From an uncultured Phycisphaerales bacterium (GTDB taxonomy: Bacteria; Planctomycetota; Phycisphaerae; Tepidisphaerales; Tepidisphaeraceae): DNA of 64,000 nucleotides. Shown one piece after another: positions 2,716 through 35,295 of this stretch (the first letter of the stretch is position 1; each line of letters starts with the position of its first letter). Where the stretch lies: NCBI GenBank assembly GCA_963844715.1, contig CAWJPJ010000006.1, forward strand, positions 1,056,001 to 1,120,000. The letters are read 5' to 3'. The translations under genes were made by a program, and so were the position numbers. The notes beneath the pieces were generated by a model, which saw only the letters and a list, made by a program, of their open reading frames with translations, was not told the DNA's origin and did no database searches.

Positions 2716-4347
2716 TCAATCGGACGCTTCGATGCCTAAATCTTTCACTTTTTTATTGAGCGTGTTGCGGTTGATTCCGAGAAAATCGGCGGCCTTGGTC
2801 TTGACCCCGCCGCATTTGGCCAGGGCGCGGTCGATGAGGGCGTGCTCGATTTGCTCGATCACCAGGGAGTATATCTCCCCTTCGCGCATTTCGTAATCGG
2901 CGATCGCCTGATCGGCGAGGCGGCGGGTGAGGGTTTCAATGGATTCGCTGGATTGGGCCTGGCGGCGCTGCTGGGCAAAAATGCGGACGCTCAGGGGGAG
3001 CAATTCCTCGTGGAAATCCTCATCCGTGCTGAGGACCACGGCGCGCTCGATGGTGTTTTCCAGTTCGCGGACGTTCCCGGGCCAGGGATAGCGGAGCAGG
3101 ACGTTGAGCATATCGCGGCTGATTCGCCGCAGCTTTCGCTCGTTTTGCGAATTGTATTTATCGAGGAAGAAGTCGATCAGGCGCGGGACGTCTTCGCGGC
3201 GATTGCGTAACGGAGGGAGATAGACGCTGACGACGTTGAGGCGGTAGAAAAGGTCCTCGCGGAAAGCGCCCTTGGCGACTTGTTCCTGGAGATCGACGTT
3301 GGTGGCGGCGATGACTCGGACGTCGACCTTGACGGTTTGCGTGTCGCCGACGCGCTCGAATTCGCGCTCCTGTAGAACGCGCAGAAGCTTGACCTGCAAC
3401 TGGGGCTCGAGGGTGCCGATTTCGTCGAGGAAAATCGTGCCGGCATCGGCGGCCTCGAAGCGGCCCTGTTTGTCGCGGATGGCGCCGGTGAAGGAGCCTT
3501 TGACGTGGCCGAAGAGTTCGCTTTCCAGAAGCGTGCCGCTGAGTGCGCCGCAGTTGACGCGGATGAAGCTTTTGTCCTTGCGGGGGGAGTTATAGTGAAT
3601 CGCCTTGGCGATCATTTCCTTTCCGGTGCCGGTTTCTCCCAAAAGTAAAACCGTCGCGCGGCTGTTGGCGACCTGGCCGACGGTAGCGAAGACTTCGTGC
3701 ATCGCGGGGGAGTCGCCGATGATGTTTTCGAAACGGTAGCGATCGCGCACCTGGGCGCGGAGCTGGGCGTTCTCCTCGAGGAGTTCTTCCTTCTGGCGCA
3801 TCATCATGCGGTTGATTTGAATGGCTTGCGCCAAAAAGGCGGAAATGATTTCCAGGAAAGTTTGATCGCCCTGCAGCGCTTCGGTCGTGGCCAGCGGTTT
3901 GTCGACGGAAAGGGCCCCGGCGGTGCGGCCTTCGATCTTAATGGGGATGCAGAGGAAGCTCATCGGGGTGCCGGAGTCGGGGGCGAGGCGGCCGGTTTTG
4001 TTGAGGAAATCGGGTTCCAAGCGGACGTCCTGAATAATCCGTGCCCGTCCGGTGGCGACTACGTTCCCGGTAATTCCTTCACCCAAGGCGTACTTGCCGC
4101 GTTCGATGTCTTCGGGGGGGATGCCGACTGCCGCCTCTGTGCGCAGTCGGCCGGAGGAATCATCGAGGAGGACGAGGGCGCCGCGCCGCATATCCAGCTT
4201 TTCTGAAATGATTTGCATCATCTTTCCGAACGCATCGCGGAGATCGAGCGTGGAGGAAAGAATGCGGCCGATCTCCATGAGAATGGCCAATTCCTGTTCA
4301 GAGGAAGCGCGGGGTGCTTGGGAATTAGGCGGCATGGACCCTTCCAT
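2716..4347 (-). CDS. GAF-domain sigma-54 enhancer-binding protein (NifA/FhlA-like architecture)
   Basis: N-terminal [41 protein letters not shown]-terminal Fis-type HTH ([12 protein letters not shown]). Confidence 0.93.
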
Positions 4348-4509: not shown

Positions 4510-5647
4510 ATGTGGTCGTTTTGGCTGATGGCGGCGGGGTTCGGGGCGCTGGGGGCGGCAGGGGCACTCTTTTACCTATTTCGTCAGGTCCGGAGTCAGA
4601 ACGCCGTTCAGCAATCCCTCGCCGAACGCACGGCGACGGTGAATCGGCTTCTAGAGTTTTCCCAAACCATCCAGGGCGCCGGCAAGCCGGATCAAATCTT
4701 TGCGTCTCTTACCCATTACTTGAAATCAGAACTTGGGCTTTGGGGGCTGGTGATCCTGACCAACGAGGCGGATGCCGTGCCGGCGATCGAACTGCGCGGC
4801 GTGGCCCGAGAATTTGATTTCAACAGCGGCGCTGGCGGAGATGGAACCGGCGCTATGCCCGTGCCTGCGTCAGAATCTGCCGCGCGTTTTTAAGCCGGAT
4901 AATTCACCGGTGCGGTGCGGCGTGGATTCGTGTTTGCACTTGCCGACGACTCACGCGGCGTATTGCATTCCGTTCACGATTGGGACGAAGGTTCAGGCCG
5001 TCGCCCACATGGTTCTGCCGGTGCGCATGGAGTGGAACGAGCAGCGCCAGCAACTGGCGCAAACATACATCAACAGCGCACAGTCGGTGCTGACATCGCT
5101 AAACCTGCTGGCGGAGGCCGAAAAACAGTCGATGACGGATGCGCTGACGGGACTGTACAACCGCCGATCAATGGATCAACTGCTTCAGCGCGAAGTGGCG
5201 ATGGCGGAACGATATGGGCATCCGATGTCGCTGGTGATGATCGACCTGGATTACTTCAAGGAGATCAACGACGCGCACGGGCACGCAGCGGGCGATCACA
5301 TGCTTCGCGCGTTTGCGGATTGCGTGCGGATCACGCTGCGGAAGACGGATCTGGCGTTTCGGTATGGGGGAGATGAGTTCGTCATTGCGCTGCCGCAGAC
5401 GCCGCTGTTTCAAGCGCAGCAGGTTGTGCAGAAGCTCCGGCAGGCGTTTTTGTCGGTCGACTTCTCGCACGCCATCACGCATCTGGACAAGAATCCGACC
5501 CTGAGCATTGGGGTCGCCGAGCGGAGCAAGACGGGGAACATATTGACGCTGGCGAGCCTTCTGTCCGCGGCTGATCAAGCGCTTTATAACGCCAAAAACA
5601 GCAATCGGAATTGCGTCCGTGTCTTCGAGCCTCCACAGGCTGCATAA
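4510..5647 (+). CDS. Membrane-anchored GAF-GGDEF diguanylate cyclase (frameshift near 4800)
   Basis: N-terminal TM helix; DALTGLYNRR, DLDYFKEIND, RKTD inhibitory site (RxxD) followed by intact GGDEF. Confidence 0.9.
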
Positions 5648-5820
5648 ACGGACCCGCCCAATATCACCTCAAATTGCACTGCAACTGCCGCTTGGCATTA
5701 ATCTTATCCGTCAAATTGAGGCGGATATTTTTGTGTTGCCCATGTAAATTGGTGTAGGATATAGGGCAAGCGTAACTCTTAAGTGGCGGCAGAAGTCCTG
5801 TGGAGACAGGGGGCTTTGCG

Positions 5821-6816
5821 ATGCAAATGGCAGTAGGGCAGGCAGTTTCAGATCGCCCGGTCATGGGCGCATTGCCGGAATTTGAATCGCGCTTCATCGT
5901 TCAATCGTCGGCGATGACCCGCGTTCAACAGGCGGCGAAGGCCGTGGCCACGCGCGCAAGCACCGTGATGCTTCTGGGGGAAACCGGCAGCGGCAAGGAG
6001 ATGCTGGCGCGGTTCGTTCACGAGAATTCCCCGCGGAAAAATCAGCCGTTTATTCCCGTCGACTGCTCGGCGTTGACCGAAACATTATTTGAAAGCCAGC
6101 TATTCGGGCACGTCAAAGGGGCATTCACCGGGGCTGTGCGCGATACCATGGGTTTCGTTCGCGCCGCCGACGGCGGGACGCTTTTTCTGGACGAAGTGGG
6201 CGAATTAACGCTGAATTTACAGGCAAAATTGCTGCGCGTGTTGCAGGAGCGCTGCGTCGTTCCGGTGGGCGGCACGCAGGCGTCTCCCGTTGACGTGCGC
6301 GTGGTCTGCGCCACGAATCGGGATTTGCAGGCGATGGTGGAACAAGAGACGTTTCGCCAGGATCTGTTTTTCCGAATCAACGTGGTGGTGCTGCGGGTTC
6401 CGCCGTTGCGCGAGCGCACGGAAGACATCGTGGCGTTGTCGGAATATTTCCTGGCGCGGCAGGCGGGGATGAGCCAGGAGCCGCGGAAATCTCTGCATCC
6501 CGACGCGGTGCAAAGCCTGATCAAATACAACTGGCCGGGGAACATCCGCGAGCTTTTCAATGTTTTGGAGCACGGGCACATCATGTCGCTGGGCCCGGTC
6601 GTTGAGTTAAGCGATTTGCCTCCCCCACTGAGCAATTCCGGGTTTGCGGGGCGCGTTCATGCGTCGGAGTTGAATCTCCAGCGGCTGGAGCGGAATGCGA
6701 TCATCGAAGCGTTGAAGCGCACGCGATTTAACCGCGCGGCGGCATGCCGTCTTTTGGGAATTGAGGCGCGTCGCTTGAATCGCCGAATTCTCGCCTTGCG
6801 CATCCCCCTGCCCTAG
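5821..6816 (+). CDS. Sigma-54 enhancer-binding protein lacking an N-terminal sensor/receiver domain
   Basis: GETGSGKE within ~60 aa of the start, GAFTGA, FLDEVG, WPGNIREL, C-terminal HTH. Confidence 0.92.
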   Translation: MQMAVGQAVSDRPVMGALPEFESRFIVQSSAMTRVQQAAKAVATRASTVMLLGETGSGKEMLARFVHENSPRKNQPFIPVDCSALTETLFESQLFGHVKGAFTGAVRDTMGFVRAADGGTLFLDEVGELTLNLQAKLLRVLQERCVVPVGGTQASPVDVRVVCATNRDLQAMVEQETFRQDLFFRINVVVLRVPPLRERTEDIVALSEYFLARQAGMSQEPRKSLHPDAVQSLIKYNWPGNIRELFNVLEHGHIMSLGPVVELSDLPPPLSNSGFAGRVHASELNLQRLERNAIIEALKRTRFNRAAACRLLGIEARRLNRRILALRIPLP

Positions 6817-6868: not shown

Positions 6869-6951
6869 CCAAAATGGTATTTTTCCGCCATATCCATTTA
6901 TAATCAAACAAGTTACGCGATCATCATACCCCCCACCACCCACCATTATGG
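6869..6951 (+). promoter_or_regulatory. Paired CCA-N3-TGG palindromes, putative enhancer (UAS) of the sigma-54 promoter at 7056
   Basis: CCAAAATGG 6869-6877 and CCATTATGG 6943-6951, 74 bp apart; same spacing recurs at 8868/8942. Confidence 0.6.
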
Positions 6952-7053: not shown

Positions 7054-7071
7054 GCGGCACGCGGTTCGTTA
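7054..7071 (+). promoter_or_regulatory. Putative sigma-54 (-24/-12) promoter of the PEP-CTERM gene
   Basis: CGGCACGCGGTTCGTT (GG-N10-GT, one mismatch at -12); positionally equivalent to the canonical site at 9054. Confidence 0.6.
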
Positions 7072-7401
7072 TAGCTTCCCGCGTAAGGCAGCGCCCATGA
7101 GCTAGGGCCATAAGGCTCTGTCCCTGTTGGGTGCGGATGCTTGCTCGATGGTGAGCTGGCATCGGGTGCTGCGGTAAGTGGATGGGTCGATCGCCGTAGC
7201 AGTTTTGATCGAATCCCAATTTGTTGTTCAGCCGTGTTCAGGGAGTCCCCCGCTGCGCGAGCCGCATGCCTAGAGCAGTGGCTTCGTTGTGGGTGTTGTG
7301 TGTACCGCCGGGAATTGTGCGGGGTGAGGTCCCCGTGATTTTCGGCGGAATTCGGAGTGGTGAAATAAGACAAGTCCCCTAACGGGGCCGAGGAGAGAAT
7401 C

Positions 7402-8745
7402 ATGAGTATCGTGGAGTCAACGAAGTCGAAGACACCCCGTATTACGCGACTTGAAGCCGTTGCCGGCGGAGCAATCATTGCTGCCGCCGTTTTCGCGGCT
7501 GCTCCGAAGTTCGCGTCCGCTCAATCCATTCAAATGCAGGTTTCGGGCGGCACCACGACCGACCCCACGGCCGCTGGCGCACTGACTTGGTTCAATACCT
7601 CGAACTGGAATAATGCCGGTGTTACCGGGACCCTTCCGGAAAGCGACACGGGCTCGCTCACCGCGCAAAACATCGCACCGGATAACGCCACGATGCCATC
7701 GGTGGGCTTGGTGTTTGATCCGGTCAACGACCCCAACGCGGCAGGACTTGGCGGTAACGCATATGTGGCGAACTTGGACGAGATTTCCGGTTCGACCTAT
7801 ATCGCTTCGGTTGCAGGAACTTATGCCGCTCCGGCAAAGCTCACGATCGAAAGCGGCACCCTCATCGCCGGCACAGCCACGGTTGGGCGCGATAGTCAGG
7901 GAATCCTGGCTCTCAACGGCGGAGCGTTCCTCACCGTCGGCTCAATCAAAATCCAAGGCACAAACAAGGCCGTTACGGCTATTGGTACTGGGACCTTCGA
8001 ATATCACGGAGGAACATTAGATGCCGAACAGGGCATCCAGCTCGGCTCGGGCGCTTGCAGTACGGGTCTAACCAAGACTTCAGCCGGTGTCGGCTACTTC
8101 ACGGTCTACAACGATGGCCCCGCCGGCGCGATTCTCAGCCAGAACGGTTTCCAGATCGCCACCAACACCAACCAGGCGGGCACGATCGGAATTGTTGAAT
8201 TCCACTATGACATCAACACGGGTGGAATCGGCGGAACCCGCCCGATCCAAACCAACGTGGACCAGGGCAACGGCGAAACCGGTCAGGGCATCCTGCACAT
8301 CCAAAATAACACCAACAATTCGGCGCGATTGAACCTTGTTCTTGACGCGGCGCCGAGCGTCATCGGCGGCCTCGTGCAGAATCTGGGCCTGTTCGATGAC
8401 ACCGTCATCTCGGGCTCCGGCACGTATCCGAAGGCCTTCTATTCAGTGGATGGCACGACGGTATTCACGCAAGGCGCCACCATCACGGCGGCATACATGG
8501 GCACGTCGTATAGCTGGACGATCAGCTATAGCGGGCAGATCAACTTCACGAATACGGCCACGTCAGGCTACGACTCGTCGGGAATCGATGCGGTTGGCGG
8601 CAACGACGTGGTACTGATCGGATTGCCGTCGGGCGGCGCTCCGCCGATCCCGGAACCGACCAGCTTGGCGCTACTCGGTGGCGCGGGCGGGATGATTATG
8701 GCCCGTCGCAGAAACAGGAAAGAAAACCAGGCCCCCAAAGCGTAA
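7402..8745 (+). CDS. PEP-CTERM surface protein
   Basis: SD GAGGAG; signal peptide ending ASAQ; G/T/N-rich body; IPEPTSLALLGGAGGMIMARRRNRK sorting signal. Confidence 0.92.
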   Translation: MSIVESTKSKTPRITRLEAVAGGAIIAAAVFAAAPKFASAQSIQMQVSGGTTTDPTAAGALTWFNTSNWNNAGVTGTLPESDTGSLTAQNIAPDNATMPSVGLVFDPVNDPNAAGLGGNAYVANLDEISGSTYIASVAGTYAAPAKLTIESGTLIAGTATVGRDSQGILALNGGAFLTVGSIKIQGTNKAVTAIGTGTFEYHGGTLDAEQGIQLGSGACSTGLTKTSAGVGYFTVYNDGPAGAILSQNGFQIATNTNQAGTIGIVEFHYDINTGGIGGTRPIQTNVDQGNGETGQGILHIQNNTNNSARLNLVLDAAPSVIGGLVQNLGLFDDTVISGSGTYPKAFYSVDGTTVFTQGATITAAYMGTSYSWTISYSGQINFTNTATSGYDSSGIDAVGGNDVVLIGLPSGGAPPIPEPTSLALLGGAGGMIMARRRNRKENQAPKA

Positions 8746-8764: not shown

Positions 8765-8826
8765 TAAAACTCTCCGCTACACCCCCGGCTCCTACCCTAC
8801 AATGCCCCGGGGGTTTTTTATGCGCC
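8765..8826 (+). repeat. Copy 1 of 62-bp direct repeat; includes an intrinsic terminator with an 18-nt C-rich loop
   Basis: taaaactctccgctacacccccggctcctaccctacaatgccccgggggttttttatgcgcc; stem acccccgg/ccgggggt plus T-run. Confidence 0.95.
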
Positions 8827-8867
8827 GAGTTCGCCCCAAGTTTGAAGGCGCTTATGGGACCGGGTTA

Positions 8868-8950
8868 CCAAAGTAGTATGCTATTCGTCTATCCATATTG
8901 ATAACAAGGACTTAAATATCAAAATCACATATGTCCACCTACCAAAATGG
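8868..8950 (+). promoter_or_regulatory. Paired CCA-N3-TGG-like sites, putative enhancer of the promoter at 9054
   Basis: CCAAAGTAG 8868-8876 and CCAAAATGG 8942-8950, 74 bp apart, in an AT-rich tract with IHF-like motifs. Confidence 0.55.
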
Positions 8951-9051
8951 CGGGTCTGGGCACGAGGTGAAGAATATAGAACCAGCAGTCTGATTGTTAT
9001 AACAGATGATTTGATAGGAAGTTAAAGAATTAATTGCCGATAGAAACAGCC

Positions 9052-9068
9052 GCGGCACGCAGTTAGCT
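9052..9068 (+). promoter_or_regulatory. Sigma-54 (-24/-12) promoter
   Basis: CGGCACGCAGTTAGCT = GG-N10-GC. Confidence 0.75.
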
Positions 9069-9078
9069 GTTCATCGGG

Positions 9079-9219
9079 TGACCTAGTGGCTGCGGTGTTC
9101 GAAAGGACCCGCAGATTTGAAGATGAAAGCCGTCGTTGCCGAGTAAGGTGGCCACCGGCAGTTTAAAACTCTCCGCTACACCCCCGGCTCCTACCCTACA
9201 ATGCCCCGGGGGTTTTTTT
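9079..9219 (+). ncRNA. Candidate sigma-54-dependent small RNA (~140 nt); 5' end approximate
   Basis: Bounded by a sigma-54 promoter and an intrinsic terminator; no substantial ORF; GAAA-tetraloop hairpin ctgcgg-tgttc-gaaa-ggac-ccgcag. Confidence 0.65.
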
Positions 9220-9226
9220 ATGCGCC
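9164..9226 (+). repeat. Copy 2 of the 62-bp direct repeat / intrinsic terminator
   Basis: Identical to 8765-8826 apart from one extra T in the T-run. Confidence 0.95.
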
Positions 9227-9248: not shown

Positions 9249-11441
9249 TTACTGGCCGATCTTGACGTAGTCTCTCCAAAACTCGCGATAGGCGCCCTCG
9301 ATGGCACGCACGAATCCAGGCACGTCCGTCAGGGGTGAGCTGCGCATTCTTTCCCGCAAGCTTGCGCGGAGGGCGGGAAGGCGCGGGAGGTCATTTGCCC
9401 AGGCGTCGGCGAGGCGGACGAACTCGGATTCGTCGGCAGCGGCCAGATCAGTCAGTTGCAAATTGCTCAATTGACTCAAGCCGGCACGCCCCACGCTGGT
9501 CTTGCCCACAAGCGTCAACACGGGGACGCCCATCCAATAAGAGTCGAGGCTCGTGGTATGACCGTTGTAAGGCAAGGTATCCAATCCGAGATCGATCCGC
9601 TGATAGGTCTGGAGGTATTGCCGGCGGGGCTGCTGAGGAACGAATTCGATGCGATCCTGGCCGAGCTGGCGAAGAACCGTCTCGCGCGCGGAACCGGGCG
9701 GGGCCATGAGGAGGATCCGCGAATCTGGAATTTGATCGAGAACGGTTTTCCACCTCCGCAGGGTTTCGGGTGTGACTTTGCAGAAGTTGTTCAGGCAGCC
9801 AAAAGTTAGGCGCCCGGATGAAATGGCCGGGAGGGGACCGACGTCCGGACCATCAAGCACGTCCATCGACTTGGGATCGTAACACCAAAAACTGTGTGGG
9901 AGCCGATGGACTTTTTCCGCGTAATGGCTGTCGGTTCGCCCGGCGGGATCGAGGTAGGGGTCGCTGAGGCGCCAGTCGATTGTTTCGAGGCCGGTGCCGC
10001 CGGGATAGCCGCCGAAGGTGACTTGGATTGGGGCGGGCTTGCGAGCGAAGAGAGGCAAGCGATTTCCCGCTGATTGCCCGGCCAGATCGACGAGAATATC
10101 GATCTTGTCGGCGCGGATCGTTCGTTCGGCGGTTTCGTCGTCCATCAGCTGGATATTCCGCCAGGCGACAGCAGCGGCGGAAACCTTTTGCGTGACGGAA
10201 TCGACTCTGGGGGAATTGGAATAGCAATAGGCCTGGATGGATAGGCGGTCGTGTCCGGTAATCAGCGGCAGGAGATTTCTTCCGACAGGATGGTCGCGGA
10301 AGTCGGCGGAGACGTAGCCGACGCGAAGGACCCGCTCGGGATGGCGATCGTTATCATGGGGGCGGGCCAGCGCCTTGAGCGGCGCGGCGTGCAGTTGAGA
10401 CCAGCGCTTGGCTTCGGCGAGAATCGCGGCGGGATCGTCGTGCGAATAATGCAGGGAAAAGACGAGATTGCCGTGGTACTCGGTGTCGGCGGGCGCAAGG
10501 GCCATGGCTCGGCGATAGCAATCTTCGGATTCGGCCAGGCGGCCGAGTTGTCGCAGGGCGTTGCCGAGATTATTGAATGCTGGGGCGAAATTTGGGCGGA
10601 GGTGGATCGCTTTGTTGCACGCCTCGACGGCGCCGTCGGGATCATTCTGATCGCATAGAGCATTTCCGAGATTGTTGAGGGCCTCGGGATAATCCGGGCG
10701 CACGCCGAGCGCTTTGCGATAGCTTTCGATGGCTTCGCGGACTTTGCCAATGGTGCGAAGGGCGATGCCGAGGTTGTAATGGGCGTCGGCCAGTTGAGGA
10801 TCGAGTTCAACGGCGCGGCGATACTCGGCAATGGCTTCGTCGAATTTGGCGGTGTTTCTCAGGGCTTCGCCCAGGTTGTTATGTCCGGCGGCGAAATTGG
10901 GGGCGATGGTGAGGAGCTTGCGGTAAGTTGAGATGGCGCGGGGGAGGTCTCCCTTGGACATCAGGGCGGCGGCGAGATTATTCAGGGCCTCGGGGTAATC
11001 CGGGCGGAGGGTGAGGGCCTGCTCGAATTCGGCGATGGCTTCATCGGGGTTCCCCGATGAGGCGAGGGCCACGCCGAGGTTGTACGCCAGTTGCGGGACG
11101 CGCGGGTGACGGACGATTGCCTTTCGCAAAACTTCGATTGCGCGGTCGAACTGACCGGTGGAGAGCAGGGCGTTGCCTAGATTGTTGCACGCCGAGGCGG
11201 ATGCGGGATCGATTGCCACGGCCCGCTCGAACTCGGCGACGGCGGCGGTTTTCTGGCCGGATTGAATCAGTAGAATCGCCAGTTCCTGAATGACGTCGGC
11301 ATCTCGCGGCTTGAGAGTCAGGGCCTGGCGGAAAAGTTGTTCCGCTTCGCGGATGCGCTCCCCCTGCTGAGCACGGCGGGCTCGCTGAAGAATTTCGTCA
11401 ATGTTGCCGAACGGTTTCAACGCGAAATTCCCTCTTGCCAT
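9249..11441 (-). CDS. TPR + GT41 (O-GlcNAc transferase/SPINDLY-like) glycosyltransferase, array 1 copy 4
   Basis: About 9 TPRs (NNLGNAL); RVGYVSADFRDHPVG, DKIDILVDLAG, KPAPIQV, LDTLPYNGHTT, WMGVPV. Confidence 0.93.
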   Translation of the reverse strand: MARGNFALKPFGNIDEILQRARRAQQGERIREAEQLFRQALTLKPRDADVIQELAILLIQSGQKTAAVAEFERAVAIDPASASACNNLGNALLSTGQFDRAIEVLRKAIVRHPRVPQLAYNLGVALASSGNPDEAIAEFEQALTLRPDYPEALNNLAAALMSKGDLPRAISTYRKLLTIAPNFAAGHNNLGEALRNTAKFDEAIAEYRRAVELDPQLADAHYNLGIALRTIGKVREAIESYRKALGVRPDYPEALNNLGNALCDQNDPDGAVEACNKAIHLRPNFAPAFNNLGNALRQLGRLAESEDCYRRAMALAPADTEYHGNLVFSLHYSHDDPAAILAEAKRWSQLHAAPLKALARPHDNDRHPERVLRVGYVSADFRDHPVGRNLLPLITGHDRLSIQAYCYSNSPRVDSVTQKVSAAAVAWRNIQLMDDETAERTIRADKIDILVDLAGQSAGNRLPLFARKPAPIQVTFGGYPGGTGLETIDWRLSDPYLDPAGRTDSHYAEKVHRLPHSFWCYDPKSMDVLDGPDVGPLPAISSGRLTFGCLNNFCKVTPETLRRWKTVLDQIPDSRILLMAPPGSARETVLRQLGQDRIEFVPQQPRRQYLQTYQRIDLGLDTLPYNGHTTSLDSYWMGVPVLTLVGKTSVGRAGLSQLSNLQLTDLAAADESEFVRLADAWANDLPRLPALRASLRERMRSSPLTDVPGFVRAIEGAYREFWRDYVKIGQ

Positions 11442-34239: not shown

Positions 34240-35201
34240 TTATGCTTCGGCGACCTGGGCCGTGCGCGGATCAGGGTCTTCGTCGCGGCGACGCGGCCGA
34301 GAGAAGAATATTCCGCCCAAGCCAAGGAGCGCCATCGCGCTGGTCGGTTCGGGAACCGACCGGACCTGCTTATCGACGGTGACCAGATAAGACTGACCCG
34401 GCACAAGTTCACGTCCCATTGGAACGCCCACTCGGCGTCGACATCGCTTAGACTGGTCGGACCGCTCAAATTCAGATTTGATGTTCCTTCGAGGGCGCTC
34501 AGCAGGCTCGTGGCGTTGCCTGCGGCATATTCGGATGCCTTCCCACTGACCACCGTCTGGCTCAATTCGCCTGGCGCGGAAACCGTCGCGGTATTGTTAC
34601 CGGTGAGACTCACTGACTCACCCAACGCTTTCCCGCCAAGGGTCAAATTCGCATAATCGAACAAGTGATAGTTCAGGCTATTTGTCGTTGACGTATTGAT
34701 CACTTTCATGGTTTCGCTGATGTCCGAAACGCCGGAGCCGGTTTGACCGCCGGTGACCATATAGGTGATGCTCAGTTGGAAGGCCTGGGCGACATCCGTA
34801 TAGGTTGCGTTCAGCCAGTTATCGCTCCCGCCGTTGGTGGACATTTCTGTCACCGAGGAGAGGGGGACGTTGTTGATTTCAGACTGCGCGCCGGTGCCGA
34901 CGCGATACCACCACGACTGTTGTTGCAACTGGTTCGTGCCATCGACGGTCCAGTTGTACATGCCGTCGGAATTGGTGGGATCGATCGAGACTGACGTGTT
35001 TCCGTTGGTGAGTGTGTACCCTGTTGGGACAGCGATGGCCGGTACGGCCGCGGCTCCAAGGAGCGAGGCAACTGCGGTAGCGGCCGCCAACATGATCTGT
35101 TTGCTCTTCGTCATGATTGCTCCCCGTCGCTCTGGAACAGTGAGCGCGCTGGACCCAAGCCCGTTGCACCCTAAATCACATTTAGAATTGAAGGTCTTCA
35201 C
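34240..35201 (-). CDS. PEP-CTERM surface protein, paralog of 32860..33837 (frameshift near 34405)
   Basis: Signal peptide; shared motifs (GTNQLQQQSWWYR vs GTQQVNQQQVYFR; WAFQWD vs YAFEWD); VPEPTSAMALLGLGGIFFSRPRRR. Confidence 0.9.
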
Positions 35202-35295
35202 AGCACTTCTCCCTAAAAGCTTCGGCTTGGGCCCAGCGGCCCCTGACTCTCGCTACAACCGATCTCAACCATTCACACAAACCAACCAATTCGGA

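Follow-up and report, generated by a model that had tools for sequence, protein, structure and literature searches.

The window analysed here, a 64,000-nt stretch of the 4.55-Mb genome of an uncultured Phycisphaerales bacterium (G000), contains a gene for a sensor-less enhancer-binding protein, a PEP-CTERM gene that we call the host gene and, behind it, a short predicted transcription unit, the RNA gene, whose 3' end repeats that of the host message (Table 1). The PEP-CTERM domain of the host protein scores 25.6 bits against TIGR02595 (cut-off 16). We compared the locus with two other members of the genus: the sister species, G001, which carries the repeated element, and G002 (95% complete), which does not. 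In both G000 and G001 a GGDEF gene precedes the sensor-less activator, and a NifA-like activator lies nearby (4772-6816 and 2716-4347); c-di-GMP input to the host and RNA unit is a possibility.

Table 1. Features of the host gene and RNA gene, in window coordinates.
Feature	Position	Strand	Remarks
Enhancer-binding protein, AAA+ and HTH, without sensor domain	5863..6816	+	Pfam Sigma54_activat and HTH_8 only
Host promoter, distal enhancer-like site (predicted)	6869..6877	+	CCAAAATGG
Host promoter, proximal enhancer-like site (predicted)	6943..6951	+	CCATTATGG; ~112 nt before -24 box
Host sigma54-type -24/-12 promoter (predicted)	7055..7070	+	GGCAC-N5-TCGT lineage form
Host PEP-CTERM gene	7402..8745	+	447 aa; member of a paralogue family
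Module copy 1, host 3' UTR	8765..8826	+	starts 19 nt past the PEP-CTERM stop codon
Copy 1 seed A	8769..8780	+	
Copy 1 stem	8782..8788/8807..8813	+	
Copy 1 loop	8789..8806	+	
Copy 1 U-tract	8814..8819	+	
RNA gene, distal enhancer-like site (predicted)	8868..8876	+	degenerate; aligns with 6869-6877
RNA gene, proximal enhancer-like site (predicted)	8942..8950	+	CCAAAATGG; 111 nt before -24 box; conserved in G001
RNA-gene sigma54-type -24/-12 promoter (predicted)	9053..9068	+	GG 9054-9055, GC 9066-9067
Predicted ~140-nt RNA	9079..9219	+	start placed by promoter spacing
First hairpin of predicted RNA	9090..9114	+	followed by A-rich linker
Second hairpin of predicted RNA	9129..9159	+	followed by shared module
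Module copy 2, end of RNA gene	9164..9226	+	
Copy 2 seed A	9168..9179	+	
Copy 2 stem	9181..9187/9206..9212	+	
Copy 2 loop	9188..9205	+	5' patch CUCCUACCCUA, 3' patch CUACAAUGC
Copy 2 U-tract	9213..9219	+	
Convergent TPR and glycosyltransferase-41 gene	9249..11441	-	bounds the unit, outside it

A preliminary description of this DNA had claimed that the two 3' ends are near-identical and share an unusually large, C-rich terminator loop, and both claims hold. Only a single T of the U-tract distinguishes the first copy (62 nt) from the second (63 nt); without gaps they repeat exactly over 55 nt, which we call the module, at a spacing of 399. In each copy an A-rich lead is followed by ACTCTCCGCTAC, then by a stem of 7 bp around a loop of 18 nt, and then by six or seven T; seed A is ACUCUCCGCUAC. 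Among 66 intergenic terminator-like hairpins in G000, 30 of which have 4-nt loops, these two have the largest loops, and a stock terminator scan misses both because it allows only loops of 3-8 nt. Given that several genes in the G000 assembly are split (RNase E/G, for example, is in two pieces), this single T may reflect a homopolymer error.

The same description had placed a sigma54-type promoter ahead of a unit without an open reading frame, and this too is borne out. The GG-N10-GC motif at 9054-9067 is conserved in G001, where the -12 form TTAGCT is also kept, and no reading frame is common to G000 and G001 between the promoter and the terminator. We therefore rejected a conserved peptide; a riboswitch was rejected because the next gene is convergent. 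Five promoter regions, those of the host and the RNA gene in G000 and G001 and of the host in G002, align box for box, with CCAWWATGG-like boxes near -190 and -112 in addition to the -24/-12 box. When we scanned all of G000 for a strict enhancer-like box combined with a sigma54-type promoter, we recovered these two promoters only. The host promoter has homologues in G001 and G002 and agrees with the consensus at 23 of 29 loci of a wider RNA family described below. Since both units lie behind collinear sigma54-type promoters, the RNA gene looks like a duplicated unit; this common layout suggests a tandem copy of the host unit minus its coding sequence. Synteny makes the neighbouring activator the likely driver of both promoters: the same promoter type follows five of eight close activator homologues in G000-G002, and RpoN is present in all three genomes.

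Two further observations concern the sequence around these promoters. The host leader (7079-7401, 323 nt) is 70% conserved in G001 over its first 170 nt, and G002 has a small ORF at that position. The first hairpin of the G001 RNA (L002:1537-1560) resembles the host -12 region, a resemblance absent from G000; this stretch is possibly a duplication remnant, or chance.

The module is rare. BLASTN and nhmmer over G000 returned the two copies and no others, which disposes of the concern that the 62-mer might be a high-copy repeat. Among 60 relatives searched, the only strong match was in G001. We ran both a pattern allowing up to three mismatches and a covariance model, R1, over a family-wide set of 141 Tepidisphaeraceae genomes; the pattern matched 2 of the 141, and R1 gave five strong matches (81-98 bits) with the next at 31 bits or less. 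Together they find these five copies only, two in G000 and three in G001, all of them 3' of PEP-CTERM genes. Given this low copy number and constant context, we rejected a dispersed REP-like repeat. In Rfam 15, which had been proposed as a check, no family reached its gathering threshold (best E 0.2; ErsA 17 of 50 bits).

In G001 both copies are kept along with both promoters, and the two differ from each other by a 3-nt loop insertion that leaves seed A and both loop patches in place. The third copy lies ~225 nt past an unrelated PEP-CTERM gene, preceded in turn by an activator paralogue and a sigma54-type promoter; this copy keeps seed A and the loop 5' patch and has lost the loop 3' patch alone. 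A metagenome scan gave six loci, two of which (L029 and L030) are G001-like; four (L031-L034) were rejected because they have no terminator. A genome scan gave three loci, two being the G001 copies, and L207 was rejected for the same reason. Because G001 and L029, a metagenome contig of a G001-like organism, each show both copies with different flanks, an assembly artefact, the other concern raised at the outset, is unlikely. The G001 host contig bears the leader of another paralogue and the sigma54 leader ends a different contig, so that paralogues may be collapsed at the host gene in that assembly.

Conservation is concentrated in the module. Between G000 and G001 it is identical at 54 of 55 positions, compared with 63/96 for the 5' part of the RNA gene and 138/281 for the spacer; in the neighbouring activator gene 42/94 four-fold sites are identical, synonymous sites being near saturation. 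By this comparison with four-fold sites, the unpaired bases of the module are under purifying selection, as had been proposed from the G000 copies. In G001 the gene with copy 1 is retained, as are the spacer boxes, the promoter, two hairpins and copy 2, so the claim that two sources carry one RNA module stands at the level of sequence in both species. The syntenic G002 locus has the activator, the promoter, the gene and a short-loop terminator; the module was not found there. The folding z-score of the RNA is only -1.8, and no two-sided base-pair changes separate G000 from G001 among its pairs. We conclude that the module is a real, selected element, and very probably a functional RNA.

We looked for its targets among PEP-CTERM messages. 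The set comprised TIGR02595 matches of G000, G001 and G002 (150 of 156 listed, 147 used), of which 14 were left out as open-ended, short, unfetched or start-less. Genes with a Shine-Dalgarno (SD)-like start were kept: 25 of 40 in G000, 31 of 34 in G001 and 53 of 59 in G002. Gene starts are heuristic and some G000 genes are frameshifted. The resulting 56 carrier leaders were compared with those of G002, with 895 non-PEP G000 genes and with 24 leaders from two further non-carrier genomes, G062 and G063, kept out of 50 loci (30 of 129 G062 matches and 20 of 20 from G063).

The most enriched 8-mer in the carrier PEP-CTERM leaders is GCGGAGAG, the exact complement of the seed. It ranks first among 60 8-mers seen at least three times (10/56 against 4/895 non-PEP leaders) and first again when set against G002 leaders (10/56 against 1/53). 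Complements of seed A of at least 8 nt occur between -100 and -1 in 6/25 G000 and 10/31 G001 leaders (16/56 carriers), compared with 1/53 in G002, 1/24 in G062 and G063 and 17/895 among non-PEP genes; Fisher values overstate these differences because the carriers, two sister species of one clade, form a single evolutionary contrast and the targets include paralogues. With the SD region masked (-100 to -21), the counts are 11/56, 1/53, 1/24 and 6/895, and the opposite-strand control gives 0/56. The sites are spread over several unrelated protein clusters.

Other controls bear on how specific this match is. When the flanks of the seed were varied around a constant CUCUCC core, 62 of the 1024 variants matched as many carrier leaders as the real seed does, and the real seed is 18th among these variants for the contrast with G002. 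Genome-wide, GCGGAGAG occurs 93 times in G002 against 270 and 206 times in the carriers, making it ~2.4-fold rarer per Mb in G002; its reversed control occurs 82 times against 171 and 124. Ranking G000 start regions on duplex energy alone was abandoned, being dominated by G-rich noise. Elsewhere in the window, the leader at 35100-35260 (-) has a 12-nt match to seed A with one bulge and resembles PEP-CTERM leaders of G001 and G002. Two non-PEP genes of G000 have a 10-nt seed-A match at the ribosome-binding site (RBS): C5:321946-323673 (-), which we take to be a probable sensor protein, and C4:129507-130619, presumably an ABC permease.

The loop provides separate matches. Its 5' patch is not enriched overall (3/56 carriers, 1/53 in G002) and finds 11- and 9-nt sites at the starts of two other PEP-CTERM genes. 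The 3' patch matches the first 15 coding nucleotides over at least 7 nt in 6/56 carriers, 1/53 G002 genes and 0/895 others, and four of the six matching genes belong to the host's own family. In the carriers, five of seven non-host paralogues match the loop at codons 2-4 over 8-9 nt, the remaining two having no match there, and a seed-A site of 7-9 nt lies within 200 nt in every one of the seven. The G000 host itself does not match: its best matches are 4 nt and 6 nt, seed A reaches at most 6 nt in the 323-nt leader, and the identical Ser-Ile-Val is encoded by synonymous codons other than those of the paralogues. The host orthologue in G002 has an 8-nt seed-A match and a 7-nt loop match, and the SD duplex energy of another G002 paralogue equals that of its G001 counterpart; on these matches, some of the complementarity is older than the RNA. 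Taken together, these alignments indicate that the module probably pairs with PEP-CTERM mRNAs.

Structure prediction partly buries seed A in the long G000 forms, at an opening cost of 3.3-4.3 kcal/mol; opening costs 0-1.5 kcal/mol in G001, and in the short form of the module the seed would be open. Twelve of the 16 leader sites end upstream of -16 and are not unusually open; four overlap the RBS. Occupying the twelve upstream sites in silico leaves the RBS unclosed (median -0.5 kcal/mol). With most sites upstream and not unusually open, and RBS access hardly changed, these calculations point to no clear direction of regulation. We favour repression of PEP-CTERM mRNAs, which we consider moderately probable, because of the sites at the RBS and start codon, the escape of the host gene and the precedent of GlnZ, which represses from upstream.

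Pairing with the same leaders might instead activate or stabilise them, for instance if it shielded sites for a nuclease or CsrA that lie upstream of the RBS. This would suit the 12 sites upstream of the SD, the slight opening of the RBS predicted for 8 of those 12 and the GGA contained in the sites, CsrA homologues being present. Positions at the RBS and codons 2-4 normally block initiation when paired, and it is here that four of the 16 sites and the loop matches fall; a host gene that avoids the sites is also better explained by repression. Among precedents, NrsZ is a sigma54-driven, processed sRNA that activates (PMC4253122), while GlnZ represses from far upstream (PMC9731577). On balance we think activation unlikely.

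About equally unlikely, in our estimation, is that the module binds a protein or sponges G-rich RNA and that the leader motif is an independent protein site, the complementarity arising as a by-product. C-rich motifs readily match SD-like sequence, as the 62 of 1024 equivalent control seeds illustrate; partial matches are present in G002, and the LhrC paper raises possible protein binding for such motifs (PMC4132741). Against this, the specificity reaches past the SD core and persists when the SD is masked, and two separate patches match the same mRNAs. The RNA contains one GGA in G000 and none in G001, which also led us to reject a CsrB/RsmZ-type sponge for CsrA.

Less probable still is that one source alone matters, with the stand-alone gene as regulator and the UTR copy just a terminator whose identity gene conversion maintains, or with the roles exchanged. 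In favour are the identity of the two G000 copies and the resemblance of their stem to the short-loop terminators of the host paralogues. The two G001 copies, however, differ by their 3-nt insertion and yet keep all three patches, the unlinked UTR-type third copy keeps two, and the wider family has both UTR and stand-alone forms. Finally, a recent neutral duplication or assembly artefact serving termination only, for which the narrow distribution (2/141 genomes) and modest folding score might speak, is highly improbable in view of 54/55 identity where synonymous sites are near saturation, independent assemblies with both copies, and conserved promoter and enhancer-like boxes.

The module also has possible relatives. 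A third large-loop element in G000, C6:834602-834674 (-), lies in the 3' UTR of a small CBM48-type gene, and a pattern built from it and the module matches 80 of the 141 genomes (including G000, G004 and a few evident non-members), compared with nine matches in seven genomes for the reversed control. We examined 29 loci, with L226 and the G004 locus left out; a sigma54-type box lies upstream in 23 of the 29, by a promoter pattern refined after viewing, and none lies downstream or antisense. In an alignment of 31 members, 99.4% of cells are paired, and two-sided changes are seen at 8 of the 11 pairs, in part between two subtypes. The family occurs as UTR elements in G000 and G001 and as a stand-alone form in G002, and Rfam gave no hits for ten of these loci. 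The module shares the sigma54-type promoter, CUCCGC(C/U)A directly before the stem and ACCCU in an enlarged loop; it differs in not having the members' longer seed, CCUCGUUUCCUC. A covariance model built without it, R2, scores the module at 18-25 bits against 58-92 for members. The two copies are the top R2 matches in the 64-kb window (19.2 and 17.8 bits; E 0.003 and 0.006; genome-level E 0.007-0.45), a first rank that is weak in score, so homology is suggestive only. Run on 120 further genomes from the phylum, R2 returned four weak matches (28-38 bits), which we rejected for want of the family seed. The family seed finds few 8-nt matches in carrier PEP-CTERM leaders (2/25 and 1/31). Because G002, G062 and G063 carry the wider family but have no leader sites, the PEP-CTERM match goes with the derived seed.

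Several features of this family are of separate note. Its loci (C6:834602-834674 (-), L209/L240, L210-L239, L241-L244 and L248; up to five per genome) have a long C-rich seed, a covarying terminator stem and an ACCCUCC loop, in the UTR of a CBM48-type gene or stand-alone. A second subtype (L054, L064, L065, L210, L225, L248) has the seed ACAAUCCUCCUCCUCCGCCAC and the stem closest to the module; three of its copies are divergent from one gene type, which we take to resemble an HrpA-type helicase, and tblastn for this hrpA-linked subtype gave no match in G000. Five loci (L222, L223, L224, L228, L234) have in common an extra internal element, which includes a long inverted repeat, between promoter and seed. 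In L069 (G113) and L077 (G118), possibly a further sRNA family, a canonical sigma54 box lies 72 nt ahead of a different C-rich seed with its terminator, and the short unit contains no ORF. Two weak R2 matches in G000 (27 bits; C8:569298-569361 and C7:617619-617683) have C-rich leads and loops and are possible further siblings.

Our preferred reading, to which we give a probability of about 0.65, is that the two loci encode sibling base-pairing sRNAs that act independently of Hfq and likely lower other PEP-CTERM mRNAs while sparing the host, given that the exposed bases match the starts of related PEP-CTERM messages and not that of the host. The RNA gene has a predicted promoter and intrinsic terminator, no conserved ORF, an unpaired seed and complementary sites in two carrier species. 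Copy 1, for its part, places a conserved seed between stop codon and terminator, as in sRNAs derived from 3' UTRs. RNase E/G and CsrA are present in all three genomes, and Hfq (PF17209) was found in none of them (85-95% complete), which does not fit an Hfq-dependent sRNA of the GlnZ or Qrr type.

In the sibling-sRNA model, the sensor-less activator would turn on both promoters, and the host mRNA and the RNA gene would both be transcribed to the module hairpin. A cut within the A/U-rich lead, for which RNase E/G is a plausible enzyme, would then free seed A. The presence of this lead in all five known copies and the better seed access predicted for the short form fit such release; that both loci are cut to one short species is, to us, nearly an even bet. 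Seed A would bind GCGGAGAG-type sites and the loop the SD region or codons 2-4, so that initiation is blocked or the mRNA decays and the surface-protein set shifts to the sigma54-driven paralogue. The RNA gene itself would descend from a tandem copy of the host unit whose coding sequence was lost.

A fuller history is possible but doubtful: an old, family-wide sigma54 sRNA scaffold may have been recruited to one PEP-CTERM 3' end, retuned to match sister genes in their leaders and first codons, and multiplied when the whole unit was duplicated and the copy lost its coding sequence, the host escaping through synonymous codons. If so, an Hfq-free RNA would enforce paralogue exchange at the cell surface. 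What this analysis adds to the preliminary description is the likely targets, the promoter type shared with the host, the third G001 copy and the wider family. PEP-CTERM proteins are numerous, and their long leaders have been noted, in the part of the report available, without a post-transcriptional explanation (PMC1569441). Our literature searches, over sources available in part, returned neither sRNA control of PEP-CTERM genes nor such an sRNA in planctomycetes. If the sibling-sRNA model is right, it supplies a regulator, a seed and a target list for surface remodelling in a lineage without detected Hfq, and a recent case in which the 3' end of an mRNA gave rise to an sRNA gene. The mechanism is testable in cultured relatives because the wider family is present in many Tepidisphaeraceae.

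Known systems share parts of this arrangement; the published accounts were available in part, and we compare with what those parts describe. The PrsR/PEP-CTERM-box regulon has the sigma54 link to PEP-CTERM genes in common (PMC1569441), but the activator here scores 306 bits against TIGR02915 (PrsR; cut-off 503) and has no receiver domain, which places the host unit outside that regulon. NrsZ (PMC4253122) and Qrr1-5 are likewise sigma54-driven sRNA genes with repeated or sibling modules; they belong to another phylum, with other activators and seeds, and as far as seen have no copy at an mRNA 3' end. The available part of one review (PMC9438474) makes no mention of duplicated or sibling sRNA copies, and its UTR and own-promoter forms of MalH/MicX occur in different species, not together.

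Three systems come closer. LhrC1-5 of Listeria monocytogenes is an sRNA in several copies whose C/U-rich patches lie in loops and in a single-stranded stretch; the copies are co-regulated, act on the mRNA of a surface protein and do not need Hfq. LhrC differs in having redundant UCCC patches for one SD site and in depending on a two-component system (PMC4132741). The module has patches that are unlike each other, one of them complementary to coding sequence; one of its copies forms the 3' end of an mRNA, its promoters are of sigma54 type, and no sequence relation to LhrC is apparent. In Streptomyces coelicolor, s-SodF is an RNA from a 3' UTR that matches the leader of a message for a functionally alternative protein and thereby represses it (PMC3919588), and it is called Hfq-independent (PMC9438474). 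It has one source, one target and a 19-nt match (PMC3919588), whereas the module has two or three sources and 8-11-nt matches to about a third of a gene family. Enterobacterial GlnZ comes from the 3' UTR of a sigma54-driven mRNA, with its seed by the terminator, as a ~50-nt RNase E product, and its binding sites lie well upstream of the SD or in the first codons; it differs in its dependence on Hfq and its metabolic targets, and no stand-alone twin with its own promoter is apparent in the available text (PMC9731577). The module would work like LhrC, s-SodF and GlnZ but belongs to none of them.
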